Source of the DNA: a virus
Lineage: Duplodnaviria; Caudoviricetes
Length of the DNA stretch: 64,000 bases
Reading direction: 5' to 3' (one strand)
Virus record (IMG/VR): IMGVR_UViG_3300025437_000009
The notes beneath the pieces were generated by a model. It saw nothing but the letters and a program-made list of their open reading frames with translations. It searched no databases and was not told where the DNA came from. The translations under genes were made by a program, and so were the position numbers. This document shows positions 5,172 to 61,564 of the stretch, in pieces; positions within the stretch are counted from its first letter, which is position 1, and each line of letters starts with the position of its first letter.

Positions 5172-5212
5172 TTTAAATCTCCGTTATACTGTATTTATAG
5201 TTATTTCAGCAG

Positions 5213-17490: not shown

Positions 17491-17540
17491 AGCTGTATTT
17501 AAGCATATAAATACCTTACTGTCAAATTTTTAAAAAATCA

Positions 17541-25156: not shown

Positions 25157-26440
25157 ATGTCAAATAAAATAGAACATACTTCCGCTGGCGGAATCCGCTT
25201 TGAACCAAATAAAAAATTAGGTTATTACATTGTTAATAATGAAATTTATTACAATAAAAATCAGGCCATGCTAGCTGGATCTAAATATCCAATTGATGTT
25301 GGCGGGTTAAACAATGATCCGGTACGTTGGATGTTCAATGAAGATACTTTTTTAAAGTTTCCCTGGCACATAGAACCTCAAGTTCCCCTCAACGAACTAT
25401 ACCGTATTCGTGCTCAACAGCTTAGAGACCAGTACGATTACATACGCTTAGAACTCAGTGGTGGAGCTGATAGCACGACCGTAGCCTATGCATTTTTATT
25501 AAATGGTATACACTTAGACGAAGTTGTGTTTCGTTATCCTAAGTCCGGTTCTAAGAATTTTTCAGGTGATCCGTGGGATACCGAAAGTCGAAATCATCTA
25601 AGCGAATGGGAATTTGCGGCCCGACCCTTGTTAGAATGGATTGCCACTAATTATCCTAAAGTTAAAATAACTGTACACGATTTTGTTGACGAGATTGTTA
25701 AAGAACAGGCCAACGACGAAAACTGGATTTATAAAACACGGCATTACATACATCCTGGTCATGTACACAAACACACTATAGATAAAACCTTAGCAGATAC
25801 TGGTAAACGTATTGGTGTAGTCTACGGTATTGATAAGCCTAAGATCTGTGTCAAAGATGGTAAGTTTTTTATATACTTTGTAGATACACAGGCCAGTAAC
25901 AATCATCCCGAAGTGGGTGATTATACTAATATTACCAACGAATTTTTCTACTGGTCTCCTGATGCTTGCGAACTGTTGGCCAAACAGGCACATGTGATTA
26001 AGACCTGGTTTAGTATGCCAGCACATCATAATATGAGTCATGTTTTGCAATGGCCCAATCAAGATTACAGCACGCGGACCTTTCGAGAACAAATACTTAA
26101 ACCTATCATTTATCCTGATTACGATTTTAGTACATTCCAAACTGCTAAAAGTACTACATCACTCTACGCAGAAATGGATAGTTGGTTTTTTACTAATTTT
26201 CGAGATACCGATTTATATGCAACCTGGACAGCAGGCATAGATTATTTAGAAAAAAATCTCAATGAAAGATATTTTAAGTCTTTTCAAAATACAATTATGG
26301 ATATTAAACAGTACCAATCGCCATTTTATTACATTGGTGATAGTACTATTAAAAATTCTAAACCGTTTCAGCCCACAAAACAACAGATACAGCAATCTCG
26401 GCACATACATTATATACGTGGTCGTTTAGAAATATATTAA
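25157..26440 (+). CDS. PP-loop (adenine nucleotide alpha-hydrolase-like) protein, paralog A
   Basis: LRAQQLRDQYDYIRLELSGGADS. ATAAATA upstream at 25125-25131. Confidence 0.65.
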   Translation: MSNKIEHTSAGGIRFEPNKKLGYYIVNNEIYYNKNQAMLAGSKYPIDVGGLNNDPVRWMFNEDTFLKFPWHIEPQVPLNELYRIRAQQLRDQYDYIRLELSGGADSTTVAYAFLLNGIHLDEVVFRYPKSGSKNFSGDPWDTESRNHLSEWEFAARPLLEWIATNYPKVKITVHDFVDEIVKEQANDENWIYKTRHYIHPGHVHKHTIDKTLADTGKRIGVVYGIDKPKICVKDGKFFIYFVDTQASNNHPEVGDYTNITNEFFYWSPDACELLAKQAHVIKTWFSMPAHHNMSHVLQWPNQDYSTRTFREQILKPIIYPDYDFSTFQTAKSTTSLYAEMDSWFFTNFRDTDLYATWTAGIDYLEKNLNERYFKSFQNTIMDIKQYQSPFYYIGDSTIKNSKPFQPTKQQIQQSRHIHYIRGRLEIY

Positions 26441-26442
26441 TT

Positions 26443-26532
26443 TGGCGGAAGCGGTGAGATTCGAACTCACGGACCTTTTACAGTCGACAGTTTTCAAGAC
26501 TGTTGCAATCAACCGGGCTCTGCCACGCTTCC
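26443..26532 (-). tRNA. tRNA-Ser(UGA)
   Basis: Long variable arm, loop CTTGAAA, G73-CCA. Confidence 0.95.
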
Positions 26533-26538
26533 ATTGTT

Positions 26539-26620
26539 TGGTACCCCAGACGGGACTCGAACCCGCACAGTACTGTCTCTTGAACAGTTGCGTCTACCTA
26601 GTATTTTGCGCCACTGGGGT
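26539..26620 (-). tRNA. atypical Leu-like tRNA (anticodon ambiguous, AAG or CAA)
   Basis: Perfect acceptor and T arms, Leu-type GGTAGACGC, loop TCAAGAG, short variable loop. Confidence 0.6.
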
Positions 26621-26622
26621 GT

Positions 26623-26698
26623 TGGTGGTAATAGTTAGATTCGAACTAACGACCTGCGCCGTATGAAGGCGATGCACTACCGCTGTGCTATATTACCA
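26623..26698 (-). tRNA. tRNA-Met/Ile2(CAU)
   Basis: Loop TTCATAC, U1-A72, CCA. Confidence 0.88.
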
Positions 26699-26711
26699 TA
26701 TTGAAACACAC

Positions 26712-26903
26712 TTAATAAATGTACTTTAATATGGTAGGACCGGTCAGACTTGAACTGACAACCTCGAAGTTAAAAGCCTCTTGCTCTGCCTTTGAGCTAC
26801 GATCCCTCTGTTTCGTTAGCTTACGTAGAGCTTTATTGCTCTTGCGGTGCGAGCCCGCCTTCCGTTTACTAGCTAGTACAGCATAAATGTTTCTTTGTTT
26901 CAT
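26712..26903 (-). CDS. Lys/Arg-rich small ORF reading through tRNA-Lys
   Basis: AGGAG RBS, MKQRNIYAVLASKRKAGSHRKSNKALRK... Confidence 0.45.
   Translation of the reverse strand: MKQRNIYAVLASKRKAGSHRKSNKALRKLTKQRDRSSKAEQEAFNFEVVSSSLTGPTILKYIY
26732..26806 (-). tRNA. tRNA-Lys(UUU)
   Basis: Loop CTTTTAA, CCA. Confidence 0.93.
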
Positions 26904-26923
26904 TTTACTTCTCCTTTTTAAAT

Positions 26924-26998
26924 TGGTCCGGCGTAGAGGAATCGAACCTCTATTGAGAGATTAGAAGTCTCCAGTATTATCCATTATACTAACGCCAG
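26924..26998 (-). tRNA. tRNA-Arg(UCU)
   Basis: Loop CTTCTAA, CCA. Confidence 0.93.
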
Positions 26999-26999
26999 G

Positions 27000-27075
27000 T
27001 GGGGTAACTGATGGGATTCGAACCCACGACAACTGGAATCACAATCCAGGATTCTACCGCTGAACTACAGTTACC
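27000..27075 (-). tRNA. tRNA-His(GUG)
   Basis: G-1:C73 pair, loop TTGTGAT. Confidence 0.95.
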
Positions 27076-27081
27076 ATTGTT

Positions 27082-27157
27082 TGGTGCCTCCTCCTGGTTT
27101 CGCGCCAGGCTATCCAGCTCTTCAGACTGGCGCTTTCACTAGATTAGCTTAAGAGGC
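27082..27157 (-). tRNA. tRNA-Phe(GAA), atypical D/T loops
   Basis: Loop CTGAAGA, T loop CGCGAAA, CCA. Confidence 0.8.
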
Positions 27158-27159
27158 AT

Positions 27160-27233
27160 TGGTAGAGGTACAAGGACTCGAACCTTGAATGACGGAATCA
27201 AAATCCGTAGTGTTGCCATTACACCATACCTCA
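27160..27233 (-). tRNA. tRNA-Gln(UUG)
   Basis: Loop TTTTGAT, U1 mismatch, CCA. Confidence 0.92.
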
Positions 27234-27244
27234 ATTGTAGAATT

Positions 27245-27652
27245 TTAATTCCTCTGCCATTTAATTCTATTCCAGATTCTTTCATGTACTATGTTTAAGC
27301 TAGTATTTACAACCAGCTGTATCGTAGCAAAACTTCCCGATGTAGTTAAGTTACCAGTAAAATAATAAGTAATTCCTGTGGCAGTGGCAAACATAATTAT
27401 TCGCCATACTATAGTTTTAACTATTGTTCTTGCGTGACTTTCGTGTAAGTCACTAATACCCCAGTTGACTCTAAGCCATGCTCTTTCATGTAGGGCATAT
27501 AAAATAGTATTAATAATCAATTGACTCAATGCTATCGAACCAGATATAACAAAATTTTTAGTCAGCAAGTATGCAGTTATAACACCGACAAGTGTTGTAT
27601 AAGTGCGCCAAGTTATTGTTTTGACTAACGTACGGGTTGGGTATTCAATCAT
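27245..27652 (-). CDS. DUF2061-like membrane protein (tandem duplicated domain)
   Basis: RTLVKTITWR...HERAW repeated as RTIVKTIVWR...HERIW. Confidence 0.7.
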   Translation of the reverse strand: MIEYPTRTLVKTITWRTYTTLVGVITAYLLTKNFVISGSIALSQLIINTILYALHERAWLRVNWGISDLHESHARTIVKTIVWRIIMFATATGITYYFTGNLTTSGSFATIQLVVNTSLNIVHERIWNRIKWQRN

Positions 27653-27676
27653 ACTGATTCTTTCTTTAAGTTATTA

Positions 27677-27753
27677 TGGTCGGAGTGGCAAGATTTGAAC
27701 TCGCGACATCTGCGTCCCAAACGCAGCGGTCTACCGGGCTGACCTACACTCCG
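27677..27753 (-). tRNA. tRNA-Pro(UGG)
   Basis: Loop TTTGGGA, C1-G72, CCA. Confidence 0.95.
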
Positions 27754-27758
27754 ATGTA

Positions 27759-27832
27759 TGGTGGAGGATGAGAGAATCGAACTCTCAATCTCGGCTTGCA
27801 AAGCCGATGTTATCCCATTTAACTAATCCCCC
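27759..27832 (-). tRNA. tRNA-Ala(UGC)
   Basis: Loop TTTGCAA, G3:U70, CCA. Confidence 0.95.
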
Positions 27833-27836
27833 AATT

Positions 27837-27912
27837 TGGTACAAGGTAAAGGGATCGAACCTTTGACCTACGGCTTGTAAGGCCGCCGCTCTACCAGCTG
27901 AGCTAACCTTGC
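27837..27912 (-). tRNA. tRNA-Val(UAC)
   Basis: Loop CTTACAA, CCA. Confidence 0.95.
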
Positions 27913-27922
27913 ATAATTCATT

Positions 27923-27999
27923 TGGCCGGCCCTGACGGATTCGAACCGCCAACCGCTAGTTTCGAAGACTAGAACTCTAATCCATTGAGCTAAGGGCCG
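27923..27999 (-). tRNA. tRNA-Arg(UCG)
   Basis: Loop CTTCGAA, CCA. Confidence 0.93.
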
Positions 28000-28002
28000 A
28001 TT

Positions 28003-28080
28003 TGGAGCAACGGGTAGGATTTGAACCTACGGCTTTCAGGATTTGCAGTCCCGTGCATTGGGCCACTCTGCCACCGTTGC
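28003..28080 (-). tRNA. tRNA-Cys(GCA)
   Basis: Loop CTGCAAA, U73-CCA. Confidence 0.93.
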
Positions 28081-28086
28081 ATTGTT

Positions 28087-28163
28087 TGGTGCCTCGACCA
28101 AGACTCGAACTTGGGACCCCCGCGTTATCAACACGGTGCTCTAACCAACTGAGCTATCGAGGC
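28087..28163 (-). tRNA. tRNA-Ile(GAU)
   Basis: Loop TTGATAA, CCA. Confidence 0.95.
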
Positions 28164-28167
28164 TGAT

Positions 28168-28329
28168 TGGTGCCGGTTGATTGGCTCAAGCCGGCAAAGC
28201 CTGTTACATTGCAGGACCGTTGCCGTTCCTGAATCCCACTACACCACCTTCGGCCTGTCTGACGCTGTTCTATCCTGCCAGAAGAAGTCTCCAAAGTGGT
28301 TGAGTTTGGATGACGCTGTTAGATGGTGA
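28168..28329 (-). ncRNA. candidate ~160-nt RNA ending in a hairpin plus CCA
   Basis: 3' end TGCCGG-C-TTGA-gccaa-TCAA-CCGGCA-CCA. Two copies of AACAGCGTCA. Confidence 0.35.
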
Positions 28330-28704
28330 TTATTTTGAACTGAGTTGCTCGATGCGAGCGATTGATTCGGGTGTTGCTTCTTCATCGAGTCCTTCTTGCC
28401 GCTGGGTATCAAATGCTATTTTCCAGGTTTTAGGATCAGGATTGGTAGCACTCATGTTTCCTTGATGATTACGATTGTATTCAGCCATTGCTTGTTCGGC
28501 ATTCATATCAGTCAACACTCTTGCGTAGAACCAGGCCTGATGCCAAGTAAACGGATCAATCCATTTGTTTTCACTTTTTGCTTGTGCTAACGCTGGTTCT
28601 AACCGAGGGTCGTGCGGCAATGTTCTGTCTTTCTTAAAGCGGTCAAAGATACCCTCGTGGATCTTGCCATCTACTAAGTCAATGTATTCTCTAAGTGTTT
28701 TCAT
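28330..28704 (-). CDS. hypothetical late protein
   Basis: Start moved to MKTLREYIDLV, 5 nt after CTAAATA. Confidence 0.7.
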   Translation of the reverse strand: MKTLREYIDLVDGKIHEGIFDRFKKDRTLPHDPRLEPALAQAKSENKWIDPFTWHQAWFYARVLTDMNAEQAMAEYNRNHQGNMSATNPDPKTWKIAFDTQRQEGLDEEATPESIARIEQLSSK

Positions 28705-28714
28705 AATAATATTT

Positions 28715-28743
28715 AGTTTAACATAAGATATTCTATTTGTCAA
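28715..28743 (-). promoter_or_regulatory. sigma70-type promoter
   Basis: TTGACA-17-TAAACT. Confidence 0.6.
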
Positions 28744-28845
28744 GTCCTAAAAAGTGCGTGTGTCCGTGGATAGATGATAAATAAAAGTGTAGTTCGCGGT
28801 GGTGGAACACCCAACTACTCTAACGCAACAAAGGAGCGATCAGCA

Positions 28846-29595
28846 ATGATATTTACTACTATTCCGTTTACCTACCTAATAAGATGGTCTAAACACGACA
28901 TTAACTATTATGGTGTCCGTTATGCCCGCGGCTGTAAACCCGAAGACTTATGGACTCGATACTTTACTTCTTCCGACCGTATCCAAGAATGCCGCGAACT
29001 TTACGGCGAGCCCGATATTATCGAAGTCCGTAAAACATTTAAGCATCACGATATTGCCCGTGCCTGGGAACATAGGGTTCTAACACGAATCAACGCTGTC
29101 CAAAAACCTAACTGGTTAAACGAACACGCTGGCGGCAAAAAAGGATTCCGCATCAAATACGGAGCCGAACATCAAAACTATGGTAAGCGTTGGACATTTA
29201 CCGAAGAGCAACGCCAACACCAAGTAGATACTCATAAAAATCTACGCTGGTGGAACAACGGCACGGAACAAGCATTTAGCGAAGTTCCTCCCGGCCCAGA
29301 TTACAAACGAGGACGACTGCCATTTAATAACCGCGGAGCCAAAATAGGAGCCAAGGTCAATAGTCAAAAATACTGGATTACCGACGGCACTAACGAAGAG
29401 ATGATCTTTAAGACCGACCTTATCCCTGCTGGATATGCTCCAGGAAGAATAGAGTCAGTATTAAAAGGTAAAACAAATCACGCTCGCGGAACGCACTGGT
29501 GGACCGACGGAACTACAACTAAAATGTCCGAAGATTGCCCTGGCCCAGAATGGCGTCGCGGCCGAACTACATGGCCGGCCCATTCCCATTCCTAA
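28846..29595 (+). mobile_element. free-standing GIY-YIG-like homing endonuclease with repeated WxxDG/WxxNG modules
   Basis: YTY-like FTYLIRW..INYYGVR...YFTSS domain, then WWNNG, WITDG, WWTDG repeats. AAGGAG RBS. Confidence 0.65.
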
Positions 29596-30154
29596 ACCCA
29601 ATCGTTCCTCCCTCATCTTTAATCCTCTTTAATACATCTTCGAAGAGGATCGGAGCGAAGTCTGGTGTCTGCTCTACGCATACGCAATGATAGCGAACAT
29701 CGATTACATCTGTGCGTCCGCTTGTTGCTAATGGTCGCATAACACGATTAGCATGGAGGTGGCCATGGACATTCGTGCCAAATCTTCCAAGACTTTCTGG
29801 ATGGACTGGAATGTGCGACAGGATAAGTCCATTCATGACATGATATCCTCGTAAACTTCTAAAGTAAGGCGTATAGTCCTCATCTTTAAAGATATCGTGA
29901 TTACCGCGGATAAGAACTTTGTCACCGTTAAGTCTATTCAAGATAGGTAGTGCCCTGCGATTGATAACCACATCACCTAGGTGATAAACTTTATCATTTG
30001 GTCGAACTCGTTCGTTCCATGCTCGAACCATGGCTTCATCCATCTCTGCGGCATCATCCCAGGGACGAAGCGGTGTAACACCATCGTTGCGAGTGAAGCG
30101 ACATACACCTGCGTGTCCAAAATGCGTGTCTGATACTAAAAATACTGCTGGCAT
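29567..30154 (-). CDS. calcineurin-like metallophosphoesterase
   Basis: SDTHFGH, HLGD, GNHD, HGHLH. Confidence 0.9.
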   Translation of the reverse strand: MPAVFLVSDTHFGHAGVCRFTRNDGVTPLRPWDDAAEMDEAMVRAWNERVRPNDKVYHLGDVVINRRALPILNRLNGDKVLIRGNHDIFKDEDYTPYFRSLRGYHVMNGLILSHIPVHPESLGRFGTNVHGHLHANRVMRPLATSGRTDVIDVRYHCVCVEQTPDFAPILFEDVLKRIKDEGGTIGFRNGNGPAM

Positions 30155-30168
30155 ACTCGCCTCCTTTC

Positions 30169-30627
30169 TTATTTAAAATTACGCCAATCGTCAATGTTGG
30201 GCTTTTCATTTTCATCATAAGTCCAACCCAACGCCTTCATCATACGGTGCTTTACTAAAAGATTAGGGCTACGAAAACGTTCTGTATCATCAAAGCCCAT
30301 CATAACTCCAACTTCACAAACTGCACCGCTACGACAAATACCTGCAAAACAATGTACAACTACGTTCATACGATTGTCTAACGCATGTTGTAATAGAGCC
30401 ACAAGTCGTGCCGCATCTTCATGACTACACTTCATTGCTTCATCTAAAACTTCGTCCTTTTCTTCTACATCTAAAAATTCAAAGTTATGTATTTCTTTGA
30501 ATTTGTGTACAGGAGTAGGACGCCAACTTGCTGGATCAACAATACTGATCAGCATACTATTCTCGCCAGCATCATGATGAAACTTTGTTGAAACATCACT
30601 AGCCGCTACATTTTCAATCCACGGCAT
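30169..30627 (-). CDS. tyrosine/dual-specificity phosphatase-like protein
   Basis: VHCFAGICRS (CX5R). Start moved to MPWIENV (GGAGG RBS); the longer ORF overlaps tRNA-Asn. Confidence 0.8.
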   Translation of the reverse strand: MPWIENVAASDVSTKFHHDAGENSMLISIVDPASWRPTPVHKFKEIHNFEFLDVEEKDEVLDEAMKCSHEDAARLVALLQHALDNRMNVVVHCFAGICRSGAVCEVGVMMGFDDTERFRSPNLLVKHRMMKALGWTYDENEKPNIDDWRNFK

Positions 30628-30647
30628 AATGCCTCCTTTTTTTGTTT

Positions 30648-30723
30648 TGGCTCCCCGAGCTGGGCTCGAACCAGCGACACCGTGATTAACAGTCACGTGC
30701 TCTACCAACTGAGCTATCAGGGA
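30648..30723 (-). tRNA. tRNA-Asn(GUU)
   Basis: Loop CTGTTAA, G73-CCA. Confidence 0.95.
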
Positions 30724-30730
30724 ATTGTAT

Positions 30731-30806
30731 TGGCGCTCTGTACGAGATTCGAACTCGTGTACCCGCCGTGAAAGGGCGGTGTCCTAGGCCTCTAGACGAA
30801 CAGAGC
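30731..30806 (-). tRNA. tRNA-Glu(UUC)
   Basis: Loop CTTTCAC, CCA. Confidence 0.95.
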
Positions 30807-30810
30807 AAAT

Positions 30811-30885
30811 TGGCGGTCCCAACCGGAATCGAACCGGTCTCTCCTCAGTGACAGTGAGGAATACTAACCGATATACTATAGGACC
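30811..30885 (-). tRNA. tRNA-Asp(GUC)
   Basis: Loop CTGTCAC, G73-CCA. Confidence 0.95.
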
Positions 30886-31310
30886 AATTTACTACCTTTA
30901 GGCATACGACCAGTGCGTATAGCATTACCCAACTTTGCCGCGGCCTTTAATCTTTTTCTACCTTCCTCACTAACATTTTTTACACCCCAAGTATCTGTTT
31001 GGGAATGACAGTTAGGACAAAGATATCTTAAATTCTCAACTACATTGTTAGTATTGTTGCCATCAATGTGATCAATCTGCAAACTTAAAGGTTTTCCTTT
31101 ATGAGTTCCGTTATTATCACATTCAACACACTTATATTCTGTATTTTTCTTAAAATACGTATAAGCATTTGCTCTTGTATATACACCACTCTCTATTTTT
31201 TCATTTAGAGAATGTTTTTTTTGGCAAGCAATACTACAATATTTTCCAGATTTTTGTGATGGCATCCATCTAAAATCATTTTTACAGCATAAACAGGTTG
31301 CAATAGGCAT
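30876..31310 (-). mobile_element. free-standing HNH homing endonuclease
   Basis: LQIDHIDGNNTNN...NLRYLCPNCH, with Cys pairs at the N-terminus. Confidence 0.85.
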
Positions 31311-31511
31311 AGGTTAGTTCTCCTTATATCTATTTATCATTCTAACCTGTTATTTATAATTTATGGGAACCTGTTGCCTAGGGCGTTTTTAGTGCCTAGG
31401 TCCGCGGTTGCCTTCCGGACTTGATTCCCACTTACTTCTCAGCAGATCGAGAATGCTCGACGCGGCTAGTGCTTACACACTATTCAATACAGTCGCCACT
31501 GTAACCGAGTT

Positions 31512-31608
31512 TGGTGGACGCTCTTGGAGTTGAACCAAGACGGCTTGACTAAGTAGTCAATTATGAAGCCTTAACAGGTCTTACCGTAAGCCAATTTTAA
31601 CAACGCCC
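31512..31608 (-). ncRNA. 97-nt tRNA-like RNA with Ala identity and no canonical anticodon arm
   Basis: Acceptor GGGCGTT/AGCGTCC (G3:U70), A73-CCA, T arm CTTGG-TTCAACT-CCAAG. Confidence 0.6.
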
Positions 31609-32026
31609 GTAAACAAAATGGTAATAACTTACCATACAACTAAACACTCGGAGGTATCGGAGAGCAAATACATTGACCTCTCAGCAACTCAACGGAATTT
31701 TAATTTGCTCTTACCGTTTGTTGTTGGAATGTTTATGTGTATGGTGTCTTATCGTCTTTTTCATGCCCGCTATCGTCAATAGCACACGCATTTCATATAT
31801 TGTCAGACTCAAGCGATTCTGTTTGGGGTACATGTTGACTAGACATAACCTCCCTCCCGATCTACTCTCAAACCATATTGAAACACACTACCTACGCACC
31901 ATACGGCGTAGCCCACCCGTGGAACCTTTGATCAACTCCGGCCTAAGTATGCTTCAATATAGTAACCCCTCCCGGGGTGCTAATATTCTACTTAAATTGT
32001 TAATGAACTTTAACTACTAAAACAAT

Positions 32027-32055
32027 AGTATAGCATTTTGGCAATTAAAGGACAA
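32027..32055 (-). promoter_or_regulatory. sigma70-type promoter with spacer motif
   Basis: TTGTCC-tttaattgccaaaatgc-TATACT (17 nt). Confidence 0.7.
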
Positions 32056-32067
32056 CCATAATAAACA

Positions 32068-32141
32068 TGGAGCGGGATAAGGGAATCGAACCCTCGTTCT
32101 CAGCTTGGAAGGCTGGAGTAATACCATTATACGAATCCCGC
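32068..32141 (-). tRNA. tRNA-Gly(UCC)
   Basis: Loop CTTCCAA, U73-CCA. Confidence 0.95.
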
Positions 32142-32147
32142 ATTGTT

Positions 32148-32221
32148 TGGCGACCCTCCAGGGAATCGAACCCCGATCTGCGGTTTTGGAGACCGATGTA
32201 ATGCCATTATACCAGAGAGTC
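32148..32221 (-). tRNA. tRNA-Trp(CCA)
   Basis: Loop CTCCAAA, G73-CCA. Confidence 0.93.
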
Positions 32222-32226
32222 ATACG

Positions 32227-32302
32227 TGGAGCGGGAAAGGAGGTTCGAACTCCCGACCTATACCTTGGCAAGGTATCGCTCTACCAGCTGAGCTATTCCC
32301 GC
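32227..32302 (-). tRNA. tRNA-Gly(GCC)
   Basis: Loop TTGCCAA, U73-CCA. Confidence 0.95.
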
Positions 32303-32311
32303 TTTGAAACT

Positions 32312-32395
32312 TGGTGGAGCATCCTGGGATCGAACCAGGCATGTCAAAGACGGCGGATTTACAGTCCACTGCATCACCGTTGATGCTTCTGCTCC
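32312..32395 (-). tRNA. tRNA-Tyr(GUA)
   Basis: Loop CTGTAAA, long variable arm, CCA. Confidence 0.92.
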
Positions 32396-32407
32396 TGTGT
32401 ATTGTAA

Positions 32408-32436
32408 AGTATACTAGTATATATGCCCCGTGTCAA
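32408..32436 (-). promoter_or_regulatory. sigma70-type promoter directly upstream of tRNA-Tyr
   Basis: TTGACA-17-TATACT. Confidence 0.8.
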
Positions 32437-32439
32437 GTG

Positions 32440-32690
32440 GGGTGGTAACCCGAATGGACGTTTACCCGCTCGTCATCTAGTATACTTTAGAATACCCTCT
32501 CTTTCGAAAGGATATGCTAGGGCTATACCCCAGCCTGTAATTTTTTACACCACACAAGGTGCTCCATCCCACAGTCCGCCCATTTAGCTGTTTATAGTGT
32601 AGCAAGGATCTCGTTCCCTATACCACTTTACTGCCGATCAAAGATAGTCTGGCCAAAAAACGTACCAGTCATCTTCATAACCTCAATCCA
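32440..32690 (-). ncRNA. candidate structured RNA
   Basis: 10-bp stem with GAAA tetraloop (ATATCCTTTC-GAAA-GAGAGGGTAT) plus several smaller hairpins. No ORF with an RBS. Confidence 0.45.
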
Positions 32691-32694
32691 CTTA

Positions 32695-32865
32695 TCAGCG
32701 TGAGGAGTATTTCGACCCCCTTGCAGACTCCTGTAACTTCGCGGCTTCTGCTAATGCTTTGACTTGAGCTTCTGCTCTTGCTACCTTTGCTTCCATTAGT
32801 GCAACTTTTTCTTCGTGTGAGAGGACAAAGTGTGATACGTTTCGTTTTTCGTTCTTATGTTCCAT
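32695..32865 (-). CDS. 56-aa helical hypothetical protein
   Basis: Read manually: MEHKNEKRNVSHFVLSHEEKVALMEAKVARAEAQVKALAEAAKLQESARGSKYSSR. AGGAG RBS right after the terminator U-tract. Confidence 0.6.
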   Translation of the reverse strand: MEHKNEKRNVSHFVLSHEEKVALMEAKVARAEAQVKALAEAAKLQESARGSKYSSR

Positions 32866-32875
32866 TTTCCTTCTC

Positions 32876-32916
32876 CTAAAAATAAAAAACCCCGGAGTGT
32901 TTAATTCCAGGGCTTT
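32876..32916 (-). terminator. intrinsic terminator (attenuator)
   Basis: AAAGCCCTGGA-attaaacac-TCCGGGGTTTT followed by TTATTTTT. Confidence 0.85.
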
Positions 32917-32959
32917 AATTAAAATATGGTGTAAAAATATATACTCTAATTAAAACCCT
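32909..32959 (-). promoter_or_regulatory. antiterminator hairpin
   Basis: AGGGTTTTAATTAGAGTAT / ATATTTTAATTAAAGCCCT: 19 contiguous pairs (3 G:U), 13-nt loop, sharing 8 nt with the terminator 5' arm. Confidence 0.75.
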
Positions 32960-33068
32960 CAACGTAATCGCGTTCGCTATTAATCATTGGGCATACTGCT
33001 GACCAATAGGCTAACCCGCCTAATGTTGGCTGTAATTTTGCGGAATGATTAAAAGTGTTCGTTCTCAT
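32946..33068 (-). CDS. candidate 40-aa leader peptide containing all 20 amino acids
   Basis: MRTNTFNHSAKLQPTLGGLAYWSAVCPMINSERDYVEGFN. ATG 9 nt after TATAAT. Confidence 0.65.
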   Translation of the reverse strand: MRTNTFNHSAKLQPTLGGLAYWSAVCPMINSERDYVEGFN

Positions 33069-33077
33069 AATTTAAGT

Positions 33078-33106
33078 ATTATAGTTTATTTATCTTTTTA
33101 TGTCAA
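33078..33106 (-). promoter_or_regulatory. consensus sigma70 promoter with an embedded late motif
   Basis: TTGACA-taaaaagATAAATAaac-TATAAT (17 nt). Confidence 0.88.
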
Positions 33107-34236
33107 CCAATATAGATATCTTTTTTGTTAAATTTGCCCAAACAGTAGAGTCTAGTGTTTAAAGGGCTTAGCCCTACCATTACCCCATGTTTGTAGTCTA
33201 ACAAGCTTCGATCAACCGACGTTAAACTTTGTTTAATATGCCAGCGCCAGCCGTCGAAGAATCTTCTATTGTAGCGTACAACCCAGAAGTCAACTTCTTG
33301 CATGATCGAACCCGAAAACTTATCTGTTTGAAAAGTGTGTATGTTATACTCCGGGTAACAAACTCGAATATATGTATCACGAGGAACGCTATGACCCCTA
33401 GTTATTTCTTGAGTTATCAAAGCCATTTCATCTGCGTTGGCTGTTGTTTCGTAGTAGTGCTTTAGTTCGTGTGCTTGGGCTATAGCAAGCTCGGGCATCT
33501 GTGGAGACCAAAAGAAAGCTTCGCTAATACGTTCTGGATCAGGATCTGCAGGTCCAATTCTATCAACAAAGTACGAATAAAAATTACCGTCTTTGATGTG
33601 GCACATAGTTTTTTCAAAACCATAGATGACGCCTACAGATTTTCCTTGCCTTACTGCTTCACACTCCCATTCACTTTTTCTACTGTATCTAAAAAAGGAT
33701 CCCATGCTTAGATAGTGTCCGCCCTTTTTTAACTTTTCTTCGTTAAAATCATGTTCGTATTCTTCAGAATAATCATCAATACAAATACGTGTATTGGGAA
33801 ATCTTTTGGCAACGTCTTCTAAGACCGGTAGTACTGCATAGTCGTACTCACTGCTGTGATTTATATTGCTAAAATCAGTTGGGTTAGCCGGAGTATATTT
33901 TTTCTGTGCTAAAGGCCAACGTGTGTATACTTCATCTACATGAATGCCATTTGATAAAAAACTATAAAGAGTAGTCCAGGAATCACTGCCGCCACTAAAG
34001 TTTATCACAATATAATCGTAGGTGTCTCGAAGTTGCTGTGCTCTTAATTTATATAATTCTTGCAAAGTTCCTGCGGGACGTTTAGTCCAATTACAGGTAG
34101 AAAATACTTCATCATAAAAATTAAAAACTACGGGATTACCAGTCTTAGATGCAAATTGAAGTGCTTCAAGTTTGTTGGTATAGACTGTGCCACCTACCTC
34201 GTAATGACCATAGTTATTATTGTTTTGGATTATCAT
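33103..34236 (-). CDS. PP-loop protein, paralog B
   Basis: LRAQQLRDTYDYIVINFSGGSDS. Start moved to MIIQNNN because the longer ORF begins inside tRNA-Leu. Confidence 0.65.
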   Translation of the reverse strand: MIIQNNNNYGHYEVGGTVYTNKLEALQFASKTGNPVVFNFYDEVFSTCNWTKRPAGTLQELYKLRAQQLRDTYDYIVINFSGGSDSWTTLYSFLSNGIHVDEVYTRWPLAQKKYTPANPTDFSNINHSSEYDYAVLPVLEDVAKRFPNTRICIDDYSEEYEHDFNEEKLKKGGHYLSMGSFFRYSRKSEWECEAVRQGKSVGVIYGFEKTMCHIKDGNFYSYFVDRIGPADPDPERISEAFFWSPQMPELAIAQAHELKHYYETTANADEMALITQEITRGHSVPRDTYIRVCYPEYNIHTFQTDKFSGSIMQEVDFWVVRYNRRFFDGWRWHIKQSLTSVDRSLLDYKHGVMVGLSPLNTRLYCLGKFNKKDIYIG

Positions 34237-34254
34237 GAGAAGAGTTTCTAAATT

Positions 34255-34339
34255 TGGTGCCCCAAGCGAGACTCGAACTCGCACACCTTACGATACTGGC
34301 TTCTAAGACCAGCGTGTCTACCAATTCCACCATCGGGGC
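34255..34339 (-). tRNA. tRNA-Leu(UAG)
   Basis: Type II cloverleaf, loop CTTAGAA, CCA. Confidence 0.95.
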
Positions 34340-34363
34340 AATACTTTACTTATACTACAAATT

Positions 34364-34451
34364 TGGTGGGCCGGGAGGGACTTGAACCCACAATGAGCTT
34401 TCGCTGGTCGATTATGAGTCGACTGCCTGCAACCAATACGGCGTCCGGCCC
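34364..34451 (-). tRNA. tRNA(CAU) with a long variable arm
   Basis: Loop CTCATAA, variable arm AGC-GAAA-GCT, 3-bp D stem, A73-CCA. Confidence 0.85.
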
Positions 34452-34488
34452 AACTAAGCAACTATTATATACTATTTGCGATTAAAGG

Positions 34489-35670
34489 TCAACGACGTTG
34501 ACGTACCGGCTCTTTTGTCGAAGATCTGCGTGCTCTTGGTGCAGTTGCGTTGGCTTTTGCAGGTTGATCACCAGTTTGATTTAGGCCTCCGCGAAGAAGA
34601 TTACCATTTTTATCAACTAGTACAACATCCTTGGTACCACGTGTACCAAGGGCACGTTTTAGTGTCAGTGCCTGTGGACGTAAGCCACGATATCCAATAG
34701 CTTTACCAGGACGGCTTGCACTATTACCAATGCGCCAAACCATTAAATGGCTTTCTGGAATATCAGCTTTGGTTTTGATAACTGTGTGGCATTCAACAGT
34801 AATATTCTTACCTTCTTGCTTAAAGTGGTGTGGTTTAAAATCTTGAATAACAATACCACCTTCAGGATTAATGTCTGTACCAAAGATAGCTCGCATAGAT
34901 TCTTCTTCAGTTGGTTCTACTACAATCTCTTTGTTGAGTCTGTAGTATTCACGTCCAAGATCATCTGTCAACTTGTCTAATTTTATAGCACCTTGAGATA
35001 ATAGATCGTCAATAATCTTTCTAGCTTTAGCTCCAAAGGAACCTTCAGCACTTTCCCAACTGGCGGCACTTAATTCTTTGATGCTGATTGGTAAATTTTT
35101 TGTTTTACTGCGTAGTACAACGTCAGCTTTTTTAATACCGCCGGTAGCATGTCTTCCAGGAGTTCCTCCAGTTGACTCGACTTCTACAGCATCATGAATA
35201 GTAATGCTTTTGCCGCGAGTATCAACAAAGGTTACATTTATTGAGCCGTATTTTTCAATCATACTGGCCATCATTGCGTCCAAGACAAATTCATTTTCTT
35301 TACCAGCAGATTTATCTGCTTGCTGACCCACGTCTTTGACAGAAATATTAACAGGACTGTTGTCAAAAATAATGACGCCAGCAGAGCTAATATTTGGAAT
35401 ATTTGCGATACGTGGGTTAGCTTTTGGTGCAACTTTTTTTAGGATCTGTAGAATATTTGCCAAGATACTTTGACGATACTTGTTTTTTAATTGACCATCG
35501 GGTATTTGAACTAGTGGCTGTAGTTTGTTACCATTTACTTTTACGTTATCGTAGCCGGCCTTTTTTAATAACTCAAGAACGCCTGTACGATCAATTAGGG
35601 GTTGGACAGATGGTTTTGCTGGTGCTTTGACAGCTTCGTCAAGGATATTAATTAATTCGCGCATTTTCAT
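34489..35670 (-). CDS. hypothetical protein, possible PD-(D/E)xK-like nuclease
   Basis: KADVVL...LPISIKE motif. Start moved to MKMRELINILDEA after CTAAATA. Confidence 0.5.
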   Translation of the reverse strand: MKMRELINILDEAVKAPAKPSVQPLIDRTGVLELLKKAGYDNVKVNGNKLQPLVQIPDGQLKNKYRQSILANILQILKKVAPKANPRIANIPNISSAGVIIFDNSPVNISVKDVGQQADKSAGKENEFVLDAMMASMIEKYGSINVTFVDTRGKSITIHDAVEVESTGGTPGRHATGGIKKADVVLRSKTKNLPISIKELSAASWESAEGSFGAKARKIIDDLLSQGAIKLDKLTDDLGREYYRLNKEIVVEPTEEESMRAIFGTDINPEGGIVIQDFKPHHFKQEGKNITVECHTVIKTKADIPESHLMVWRIGNSASRPGKAIGYRGLRPQALTLKRALGTRGTKDVVLVDKNGNLLRGGLNQTGDQPAKANATAPRARRSSTKEPVRQRR

Positions 35671-35680
35671 AATACAGTAT

Positions 35681-36439
35681 TTAGTCTGTAATTTGATAAA
35701 AGTCTTTGTCCAGCCAAGCAACTACTGTATCTTCTAAACGTGCATATCCATACTTAGTTACGCTACTAACAATACTATCATTGACTAAATTGCGGTCAAT
35801 TATGTCGTGCCAACTAGCGTGTTCGGGCAAGGGCTCATGTTCTGTAGCGTATACCGCTGCTTGTAGCCAAGGAGTCCCTGGTTCACGATAAAAATACGCA
35901 TCTCTACAGTCAAATCCGCTGATGGCCAACATATAGATAAGATTCAAAAGGTTATAACTGTAGTATTGGTGACTATGATTACTAATGATCATTTGACTGC
36001 GTCTATGGTCCCAATAAGTAGTCTGTGGTATAGTTAGCACTAACATACCGTTGACCGTCATAGTTGATTTCCATGTGGCCAGACATTTTAAAGGATTTCG
36101 AGCATATTGAAATGAATCATGTGCCCATAATAGATCAACTTGTCTAGGGATAACTCGTTCCTCAAAATTTCCCTCAATTGGGTGTACATTAGGTAGTGCT
36201 AGTATGCTTGGATCAATCTGTTGAATATTTTGATCAACTGCATAAACAATGTAATTGTGGAATTCCGGAGGATCATCTCTAGTTTGTAGTGTAGCCCACC
36301 ATTTAGCGTCAAATCCGGCACCGCAACCCATGTCTGCTACTACAGTTAAACTATCTAAATAATCATCATACTTGTAGATTAGATCTAAAGTTTTTCGACT
36401 GTGCTCGTGACTTTCGTCGGGATTTTTAAACAGGCCCAT
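35681..36439 (-). CDS. class I SAM-dependent methyltransferase
   Basis: VADMGCGAG, YAVDQ, DLLWAHDSFQY. Confidence 0.8.
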   Translation of the reverse strand: MGLFKNPDESHEHSRKTLDLIYKYDDYLDSLTVVADMGCGAGFDAKWWATLQTRDDPPEFHNYIVYAVDQNIQQIDPSILALPNVHPIEGNFEERVIPRQVDLLWAHDSFQYARNPLKCLATWKSTMTVNGMLVLTIPQTTYWDHRRSQMIISNHSHQYYSYNLLNLIYMLAISGFDCRDAYFYREPGTPWLQAAVYATEHEPLPEHASWHDIIDRNLVNDSIVSSVTKYGYARLEDTVVAWLDKDFYQITD

Positions 36440-61449: not shown

Positions 61450-61564
61450 GGTTTATATCCTTTATATTACATGTTATAGTTATTTATAAGAAAGGTATAA
61501 AATATGGTAGGTTACAGGAGCCTTTGCAAAGGTTTAATTGATTTTTGCATCATAAATACAGCAT

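Follow-up and report, generated by a model that had tools for sequence, protein, structure and literature searches.

We describe here a compact element on the minus strand of a 64,000-nucleotide (nt) stretch of viral DNA (the window; IMG/VR record IMGVR_UViG_3300025437_000009, Caudoviricetes) that we judge from sequence comparison, at a little better than even likelihood, to be a ribosome-dependent leader-peptide attenuator heading a phage translation-support unit made up of a gene for a small protein, a non-coding RNA and transfer RNA (tRNA) genes. All coordinates are positions in the window, and the element reads 5′ to 3′ on the minus strand. An earlier note on this DNA, made from the sequence alone, had proposed such an attenuator, and comparison with relatives now supports that reading: the leader frame is open throughout, the antiterminator covaries, the element is linked to tRNA genes, the leader peptides are unusually diverse in amino acid types and the predicted fold switches in 36 of 40 leaders. 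The window carries a myovirus gene set (tail sheath, tail tube, terminase and GroEL) and its sequence was recovered from freshwater metagenomes only; the source is a lake-water giant phage.

The leader region and its two mutually exclusive hairpins

The element begins with a σ70 promoter (33106-33078; TTGACA at 33106-33101, a 17-nt spacer and TATAAT at 33083-33078) that matches the consensus at 12 of 12 positions and is the sole such site within 26000-36000, with transcription predicted to start near 33072-33071. The spacer contains GATAAATA at 33094-33087, which resembles a T4-type late-promoter motif. The ATG of a near-leaderless open reading frame (ORF; 33068-32946), which has no Shine-Dalgarno sequence, lies at 33068, 9 nt past the -10 box, and the frame runs for 40 codons to a TAG at 32948-32946. 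These 40 codons are of 32 different kinds and specify all 20 amino acids, the set being complete at codon 34, and no amino acid exceeds four copies. The TAG and the last codons fall within the 5′ arm (32959-32941) of the antiterminator hairpin (32959-32909; loop 32940-32928, 3′ arm 32927-32909), a helix of 19 contiguous base pairs, three of them G-U, with a folding energy of -21.2 kcal/mol and a z score of -5.75. It is followed by an intrinsic terminator (32916-32878; -14.8 kcal/mol) that is conserved in all relatives and consists of a 5′ arm (32916-32906), the 9-nt loop AUUAAACAC (32905-32897), a 3′ arm (32896-32886) and a U6-A-U5 tract. The segment AAAGCCCT (32916-32909) is common to the 3′ arm of the antiterminator and the 5′ arm of the terminator, and the two hairpins are therefore mutually exclusive. 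The earlier note had listed the perfect promoter with its embedded late motif, the ATG placed 9 nt past the -10 box with no Shine-Dalgarno sequence, the number and kinds of codons and residues, the 19-bp hairpin enclosing the TAG and its overlap with the terminator, and each of these is confirmed. The antiterminator hairpin occurs once in the window, and a reading of the leader as a repeated element was rejected on the same ground, the hairpin arm being found a single time.

The predicted folds of this RNA depend on where a ribosome is placed. As naked RNA, the window leader folds as the antiterminator plus a second hairpin, H1 (see below), with a terminator probability of 0.26, and this value becomes 0.95 at equilibrium when a ribosome footprint is masked at the stop codon. 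For the 40 leaders of the family described in the next section, the mean terminator probability goes from 0.48 for the naked RNA to 0.87 with the ribosome at the stop codon; the terminator is mostly unformed in 22 of the 40 naked leaders and exceeds a probability of 0.5 in 36 of 40 with the footprint in place. A partner for the 5′ arm of the terminator is predicted 6 to 29 nt before the stop codon in all 40, and the distance from the stop codon to the end of the U tract is 56 to 65 nt across the family, similar to that of the trp leader. The geometry fits a model in which the position of the ribosome on the ORF would select the fold.

H1 (33057-32975) lies inside the ORF and directly ahead of the antiterminator, with a basal helix at 33052-33044/32988-32980 and an apical one at 33022-33018/33011-33007. 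It is separate from the antiterminator, and no segment upstream of the antiterminator in the leader competes for its 5′ strand. A hairpin over codons ~5 to 31 is predicted in nearly all peptide clusters with basal helices of differing sequence, and the RNAalifold consensus includes the apical hairpin of H1. Its location would suit a polymerase pause, making H1 a candidate pause or synchronizing hairpin that may let the ribosome catch up with RNA polymerase.

A family of diverged leaders with an open frame and a covarying antiterminator

We gathered relatives through the 393-residue protein encoded beside the element, the small protein encoded downstream and the terminator motif, and found the element in 62 metagenomic and viral contigs besides the window. 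Forty-one distinct ORFs were recovered, 40 of which constitute the family of leaders and fall into 12 peptide clusters set at <45% identity; the fetched loci are partial and cover only the stretch around the leader. The exact terminator motif is present in 43 IMG/VR contigs, and the family is widespread in lake viromes, with >60 contigs that include genomes over 200 to 360 kilobases (kb). The earlier note had suggested looking among related phages for leaders that retain this architecture as their sequences diverge, and these 40 leaders in 12 clusters do so. The closest relatives, L001 and L002 (flanking protein 92% identical), carry the element with 10 differences: five synonymous and two nonsynonymous changes in the ORF, one difference in the 5′ untranslated region (UTR) and two in hairpin loops, the stems being unchanged. 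A 364-kb contig with a far more distant flanking protein (L005, 49% identical) has the same architecture at another position: the same promoter, an ATG 9 nt past the -10 box, an ORF of 30 codons whose peptide differs from that of the window leader, and a hairpin that has the TAG in its 5′ arm and overlaps the terminator, followed by a 57-residue homologue of the small protein.

The leader frame is open in 40 of 40 variants, its 1618 codons containing not one stop, whereas stops number 155 in the +1 frame and 157 in the +2 frame (0.099 per codon); the probability of an open frame in all 12 clusters is ~1e-22. Insertions and deletions in the leaders are multiples of three and keep the frame, and the ratio of nonsynonymous to synonymous changes (pN/pS) is 0.1 to 0.3 for close pairs and 0.4 to 0.9 for distant pairs. 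This is strong evidence that the leader frame is translated, as far as the pattern of sequence change can tell. The leaders end in TAG (24) or TAA (16) and never in TGA; the gene for the neighboring 56-residue protein does end in TGA.

The open frame also bears on whether the RNA itself might be the product, that is, whether an ~190-nt terminated transcript is a stable, dual-function small RNA that acts in trans, with the ORF secondary. The leader transcript as a whole is unusually structured (z score -4.3), H1 is conserved with a changing basal helix, and the unit has its own strong promoter and terminator, all of which such an RNA would share. There is a precedent in rnTrpL of Sinorhizobium, an attenuator-derived RNA that acts in trans (PMC6614838). 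We nonetheless consider this improbable as the main explanation: the absence of stops and the frame-preserving indels show that the frame is under selection, and no target can be proposed. A small RNA of this kind would be compatible with attenuation.

Covariation singles out the antiterminator. In a test on 26 sequences, cells of the antiterminator pairs are paired in 88% of cases versus 80% in shuffles and ≤55% in slid controls; double changes occur in 10 of the 19 pairs, with 46 such cells versus 16 expected, a number that none of 500 shuffles matches. An alignment of 12 sequences gives antiterminator covariation in the same direction. The changes are plainest in the basal helix, in which the last codons of the ORF pair with the CCC side of the terminator 5′ arm and which takes the form GGG-xxx/xxx-CCC with TTT/AAA, TCT/AGA, TTC/GAA, TCC/GGA and TTG/CAA as variants. 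The length of the hairpin raises the further question of whether it is a processing site at which RNase III would separate the leader from a tRNA precursor, and 19 contiguous pairs do approach a minimal RNase III substrate. A stem of ~20 bp is not what the family conserves, however: the helix is interrupted, or cut to six to eight pairs with long loops, in L005, L019 and L023, it is broken or shortened in others as well, and the overlap with the terminator is kept. Of the explanations we weighed, RNase III processing has the least to recommend it and is very unlikely indeed.

The terminator loop behaves differently from the stems. Its sequence, A(C/U)UAAA(C/A)AC, is kept in 13 of 13 relatives found through protein searches, including those with other stems and another leader peptide. 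Such invariance, in a loop that at 9 nt is long for a terminator, would be expected if a trans-acting factor bound the loop and set termination, with translation of the ORF secondary, and the small coiled-coil protein whose gene nearly always follows would be an obvious candidate. The loop is kept, however, in members that have no homologue of this 56-residue protein, binding is conjecture, our search for a partner sequence or binding factor for the loop found none, and a factor of this kind explains neither the open frame nor the position of the stop codon nor the amino acid diversity described below. We regard loop-directed control as unlikely to be the primary mechanism; it could coexist with ribosome sensing.

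The promoter is likewise maintained. More than 30 distinct relatives retain the two hexamers at their 17-nt spacing, together with a spacer motif, TAAATA, that in many of them takes the form of the exact sequence TATAAATA. The ATG lies 6 to 11 nt past the -10 box in 10 of the 12 clusters, frequently as a double ATG at 7 and 10; judged from promoter spacing, the distance is 6 to 7 nt in five clusters and 9 to 11 nt in the window leader and others. In L054 and L055/L060 the 5′ UTR is instead long, at 25 to ~60 nt, and the ATG is preceded by purine-rich sites. Exact copies of TATAAATA also stand 20 to 41 nt 5′ of four other gene starts in the window, that of the tail sheath included (5192-5199, 17506-17513, 31351-31358 and 61481-61488). 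This placement matches expectation for T4-type late promoters; the total count across the window is not above chance. The spacer motif suggests a late promoter nested inside the early promoter of the leader, and one may speculate that late in infection transcripts from such a promoter would have a longer 5′ UTR, altering the efficiency with which the leader is translated.

Neither DNA nor protein searches of GenBank phages with the element, the 40-residue peptide, the 393-residue protein and the non-coding stretch gave anything significant, no copy of the terminator motif was found in 185,579 bacterial and archaeal species (one genome each), and IMG/VR searched with the 393-residue protein alone returned no relative. 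Pfam and PHROG contain no family for the leader peptides. A search of Rfam with the leader region gave sub-threshold matches only, with the Thr and His leader models at E values of 2 to 6, and in the interval 32300-33120 nothing but a tRNA gene matches within a threshold of E 0.1, with no T-box.

Several further observations concern individual members. Relative to L001 and L002 the window is a mosaic, in which the gene for the flanking protein is 88.8% identical, the leader ORF 94.3% identical and everything past 32903 100% identical; from this pattern, a recombination boundary inside the element is suggested. A 93-residue ORF called in L001 across the hairpin and terminator was dismissed as an artefact, since a 1-nt indel in the loop breaks its frame in the window. 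The forty-first ORF, that of L045, is an unrelated 38-residue signal-peptide-like frame ahead of the same terminator and is excluded from the 40; this locus (L045:5575-5880, also L046 and L061) has an AGGGTT/AACCCT overlap and 14 amino acid types, followed by a new promoter and tRNA genes.

Amino acid diversity and the downstream tRNA genes

The chance of all 20 residues appearing in a 40-residue window of this phage's proteins, a comparison that the earlier note had left to be made, is 0.6 to 1.0% per window, and the leader is the sole all-20 ORF among the 155 ORFs of 35 to 45 residues in the window. The family extends this well beyond one case. Among the 27 leaders of ≥38 residues, 18 contain all 20 types and 22 contain at least 19, where 0.3 to 4% is expected, and four of the eight long-leader clusters reach 20 types. 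Measured against protein windows of this phage, the diversity z score is positive in 12 of 12 clusters (mean 1.27, t = 7.6), and the excess survives mononucleotide, codon-position-preserving and structure-preserving shuffles (t = 6.7 to 7.4), by which nucleotide composition and the hairpin were rejected as its cause. The excess is located upstream of the antiterminator (t = 6.7), with those types found in the tail alone being mostly Asp/Glu at the boundary. Fourteen conserved columns of the main cluster supply 13 types, and the rare residues Cys, Lys and Phe occur at different positions in different subgroups. In the window leader, Asp is found only at codon 34, leaving 19 types in the part predicted to be sensitive to stalling. 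The earlier note had held that stalling at any codon would free the antiterminator; this would hold for those 19 types and fail for Asp, which lies outside the sensitive part.

What follows the terminator in the window is, in order, AGGAG (32877-32873) with the gene for a 56-residue, coiled-coil-like protein (32865-32695), a conserved non-coding stretch of ~260 nt (32694-32437), and the start of the main tRNA block (32436-32068), in which a promoter-like site (32436-32408) precedes the genes for tRNA-Tyr (32395-32315), tRNA-Gly (32302-32227), tRNA-Trp (32221-32148) and a second tRNA-Gly (32141-32068), all on the minus strand. From here the tRNA array runs on to 21375, and the tRNA genes of the window cover 20 of 20 amino acids when Tyr and Phe (27157-27085) are counted. 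The cargo named in the earlier note (a small ORF, a non-coding RNA and tRNAs) is thus found downstream, in an array that covers the 20 amino acids. Its placing of the element at the head of the tRNA array holds for the main block and not for the whole set, as tRNA-Met and tRNA-Leu (34451-34255) and the gene for the flanking protein lie upstream. Throughout the family, tRNA genes on the same strand are found 0.1 to 1.9 kb downstream of 32 of 40 leaders, among them nearly every locus fetched to a sufficient extent. In L028, L032, L035 and L039 a small-protein gene and then tRNA genes follow with no promoter-like site between, and in L059 a shortened form of the non-coding motif, again with no promoter-like site, occupies the interval before the tRNA-Tyr gene, which begins 111 nt past the U tract; in these five loci the tRNA genes are therefore reachable by read-through only.

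The repertoires of leader and array may be matched. In only seven cases does an amino acid that a leader lacks have a tRNA gene at the same fetched locus, versus 15.4 ± 3.0 when loci are permuted (P = 0.0035), and by cluster, seven of nine are negative (t = -2.1). Single-linkage grouping of the leaders at 35% identity merged nearly all of them and left no usable test of matching at that level. We rate as suggestive, given partial loci and related clusters, the idea that the leader repertoire follows the tRNA repertoire and comprises the full alphabet where the array is complete.

Of the 41 distinct ORFs, 22 have a homologue of the 56-residue protein (50 to 100% identity) directly past the terminator, and the protein ends in an invariant LQESARGSKY at its C terminus; in other clusters a different protein of ~60 residues, starting MTDFTKLND or MSIDYKKLND, takes the same place. 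Neither Pfam nor PHROG gave a match to the 56-residue protein. The non-coding stretch has motifs resembling GGGAACGAG...ACACTATAAAC...AAATGGGCGGA and belongs to no Rfam family. By blastn, similar non-coding sequence is found 3′ of the terminator in 24 of 40 relatives; in L054 and L062 no more than ~65 nt separate the terminator from the start of the match, the same motif can be recognized by eye right past the terminator in L058 and L059, and the L005 copy is at L005:7029-7516. In some relatives this stretch is immediately 3′ of the terminator and adjoins a tRNA gene.

In another alternative, an ordinary small gene encodes a functional peptide and a leaky terminator holds short and long transcripts at a constant ratio, the hairpin merely tuning that ratio and no translation being sensed. 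Peptide motifs are conserved within clusters, pN/pS is <1, the terminator is predicted irrespective of ribosomes in 18 of 40 leaders, and the same terminator stands behind the unrelated signal-peptide-like ORF of L045, as this account would have it. Between clusters, however, the peptide is almost wholly changed and the architecture constant; the 56-residue protein is 63% identical to its L005 counterpart, whereas the two leader peptides are largely different and the leader peptide has no Pfam or PHROG family. Nor does this account deal with the covariation of the antiterminator, and a peptide acting in trans explains neither the excess of amino acid types nor the link to nearby tRNA genes. 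We consider it unlikely, if the least unlikely of the alternatives to attenuation.

The conserved residues of the main cluster can be read in yet another way, as a TnaC-like nascent peptide in which a conserved Trp and a downstream motif stall the ribosome upon binding of a small-molecule ligand. Of the 40 leaders, 38 contain one Trp, which in the main cluster precedes a conserved Asp/Glu-Arg by 10 to 15 residues. The distance from Trp to the stop codon varies from 12 to 27 residues, however, the motif is absent from other clusters, and the diversity of amino acids and the linkage to tRNA genes are unexplained, so that ligand-dependent arrest is to our minds quite improbable.

The gene that flanks the element upstream (34236-33103, minus strand) encodes a PP-loop (SGGSDS) protein listed as 393 residues, with 103 metagenomic relatives (P0001-P0103) and no match in Pfam or PHROG. 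Its listed GTG start at 34284 overlaps the tRNA-Leu gene, and the likely start is the ATG at 34236. Members of this family lie among tRNA genes in the window, L001-L003 and L005, with L004 having no tRNA gene nearby, and the protein may be a tRNA-modifying enzyme. A reading of the leader as the precursor of a lasso peptide or other ribosomally synthesized and post-translationally modified peptide, made beside a PP-loop enzyme, was rejected because in L005 the two genes lie apart and because the PP-loop family elsewhere sits among tRNA genes. As to the tRNA genes themselves, ARAGORN missed and Rfam found those for Tyr(GTA) (32315-32395) and Phe(GAA) (27085-27157) and a third, atypical gene whose anticodon loop reads CAAGA (26542-26620), a 97-nt tRNA-like gene on the minus strand (31512-31608) is called Asn by ARAGORN, and L002 has an extra gene of 199 residues between tRNA-Tyr and tRNA-Gly. 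A GOLLD RNA lies ~0.5 kb upstream of the L052 leader (L052:1587-2052), and two-piece (permuted) transfer-messenger RNA genes are found near the leaders of L023 (5008-5330), L027 (5651-6042) and L034 (9645-9905). These regions look like islands of translation-support genes.

Proposed mechanism and comparison with known leaders

In the mechanism that we favor, host RNA polymerase would initiate at the consensus promoter, giving a transcript that starts at, or within a few bases of, the AUG. With the ribosome presumably coupled to the polymerase, an undelayed ribosome that reaches the last codons and the UAG would cover the 5′ strand of the antiterminator, the terminator would fold and transcription would end ~60 nt past the stop codon. 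A ribosome held within approximately the first 32 codons, or the absence of a ribosome, would leave the last codons free to pair with the 5′ half of the terminator stem, forming the antiterminator and permitting read-through. With so few amino acids missing from the leaders, transcription of the phage's own tRNA genes would be expected to increase whenever almost any tRNA ran short or was destroyed. We advance more tentatively, as a possibility that we hold at rather less than even, the view that these elements are sensors of decoding capacity, in which a leaderless test ORF is matched to the tRNA repertoire of the phage, here one for 20 amino acids, and the tRNA array is induced along with its accompanying RNA and protein when any host tRNA becomes limiting, for example, after cleavage by an anticodon-nuclease defense, and so constitutes an inducible counter-defense.

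A number of observations weigh against this mechanism. The terminator wins at equilibrium with no ribosome present in the 18 leaders noted above, mainly short ones, and a switch in these would rest on the order of synthesis, with the antiterminator emerging before the terminator. The antiterminator of nine members has its 5′ strand 20 to 29 nt before the stop codon, where it would not be covered by a terminating ribosome and would be by a translating one. The ORF has no Shine-Dalgarno sequence, and its 9-nt gap implies an mRNA leader of 2 to 4 nt in the window, which is poor for leaderless initiation in E. coli. The peptides of the main cluster conserve His8, Gln-Pro, Leu-Gly, Ala-Tyr-Trp and Asn-Ser-Asp/Glu-Arg, so constraints on the peptide or RNA must act beyond those on any sequence that contains all amino acids. 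A single all-20 ORF is about what multiple testing of 155 ORFs would give, and the significance of this property comes from the family and not from the single case; even there, the 12 clusters are homologous and not fully independent, the number of types ranges from 15 to 20, with 15 to 19 in the short leaders of 32 to 36 residues, and the chance of all 20 increases to 4 to 12% per lineage when the conserved columns are fixed. The absence of a nearby tRNA gene in a partial locus is not absence from the genome, and single codons for each amino acid make a weaker sensor than the codon runs of trp and his leaders. Finally, the array of the window is fed as well from promoter-like sites at 32436, 32055 and 28743; given that tRNA-Tyr and later blocks have such sites of their own, the response in this window may amount to a boost or to partial control, a caveat that the earlier note had raised and that is borne out. 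Each of the alternatives discussed above explains a part of the data and several could coexist with attenuation, but none jointly explains the open frame, the covarying overlap, the excess of diversity and the linkage to tRNA genes.

The class of mechanism is a textbook one, and what is new lies in the logic of the sensor, in its cargo and in its phage setting; a search of the full-text literature found neither leader-peptide control of phage tRNA genes nor a leader containing the full set of amino acids. The usual view of phage tRNA genes has been that they are constitutive and help with codon usage; recent work sees them as replacing host tRNAs destroyed by defense nucleases (PMC11555353, PMC13056530, PMC12673091). 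If our reading is correct, giant phages regulate their supply of tRNA through feedback from the ribosome itself. Leader-peptide attenuation would then report on decoding capacity in general and not just on a single amino acid, and would govern tRNA genes as well as biosynthetic operons. With its small size and σ70 promoter, the element is directly testable with reporters in a laboratory strain and might find use as a compact detector of translation stress.

The phage leader most resembles trpL, hisL, pheL, thrL, leuL and the multivalent ilvL, which likewise consist of a short open leader ORF and, ahead of the cargo, a terminator whose 5′ strand can pair alternatively, and exclusively, with an upstream segment. 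In common with the trpL/hisL type, the end of the ORF overlaps the antiterminator segment, a hairpin lies within the ORF, and the stop codon is ~60 to 70 nt before the point of termination; the logic proposed here, in which a stalled ribosome would lead to read-through and a ribosome at the stop codon to termination, is also the same. Unlike these leaders, the phage leader has maximal amino acid variety in place of a run of codons for a single amino acid, is phage-encoded with a leaderless or near-leaderless start and no Shine-Dalgarno sequence, and has as its cargo tRNA genes, a small protein and an RNA rather than a biosynthetic or aminoacyl-tRNA synthetase operon. It also lacks the 1:2 pairing that competes with the antiterminator, and an untranslated phage leader is therefore predicted to read through and not to super-attenuate. 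T-box riboswitches also choose between terminator and antiterminator according to the condition of the tRNA pool and in this way control genes related to translation, as proposed for the phage leader; unlike the latter, they have no ORF and bind one uncharged tRNA directly, and the Rfam search of 32300-33120 found neither a specifier loop nor a T-box sequence. The leaderless polycysteine ORFs of mycobacteria (bioRxiv 10.1101/834739) are similarly first cistrons that control downstream genes; these are bacterial, Cys-enriched and associated with Cys-related operons, and the start of the phage leader is deduced from promoter spacing alone. Finally, toiL of E. coli (PMC12121999) and the antibiotic-responsive leader peptides of resistance genes (PMC5418344) control toxin-antitoxin or resistance genes and, unlike the phage leader, respond to drug-bound ribosomes at particular peptide contexts, with toiL acting via Rho and translation of the downstream gene; what they would share with the phage leader is that they report general trouble in elongation and not the level of one metabolite.

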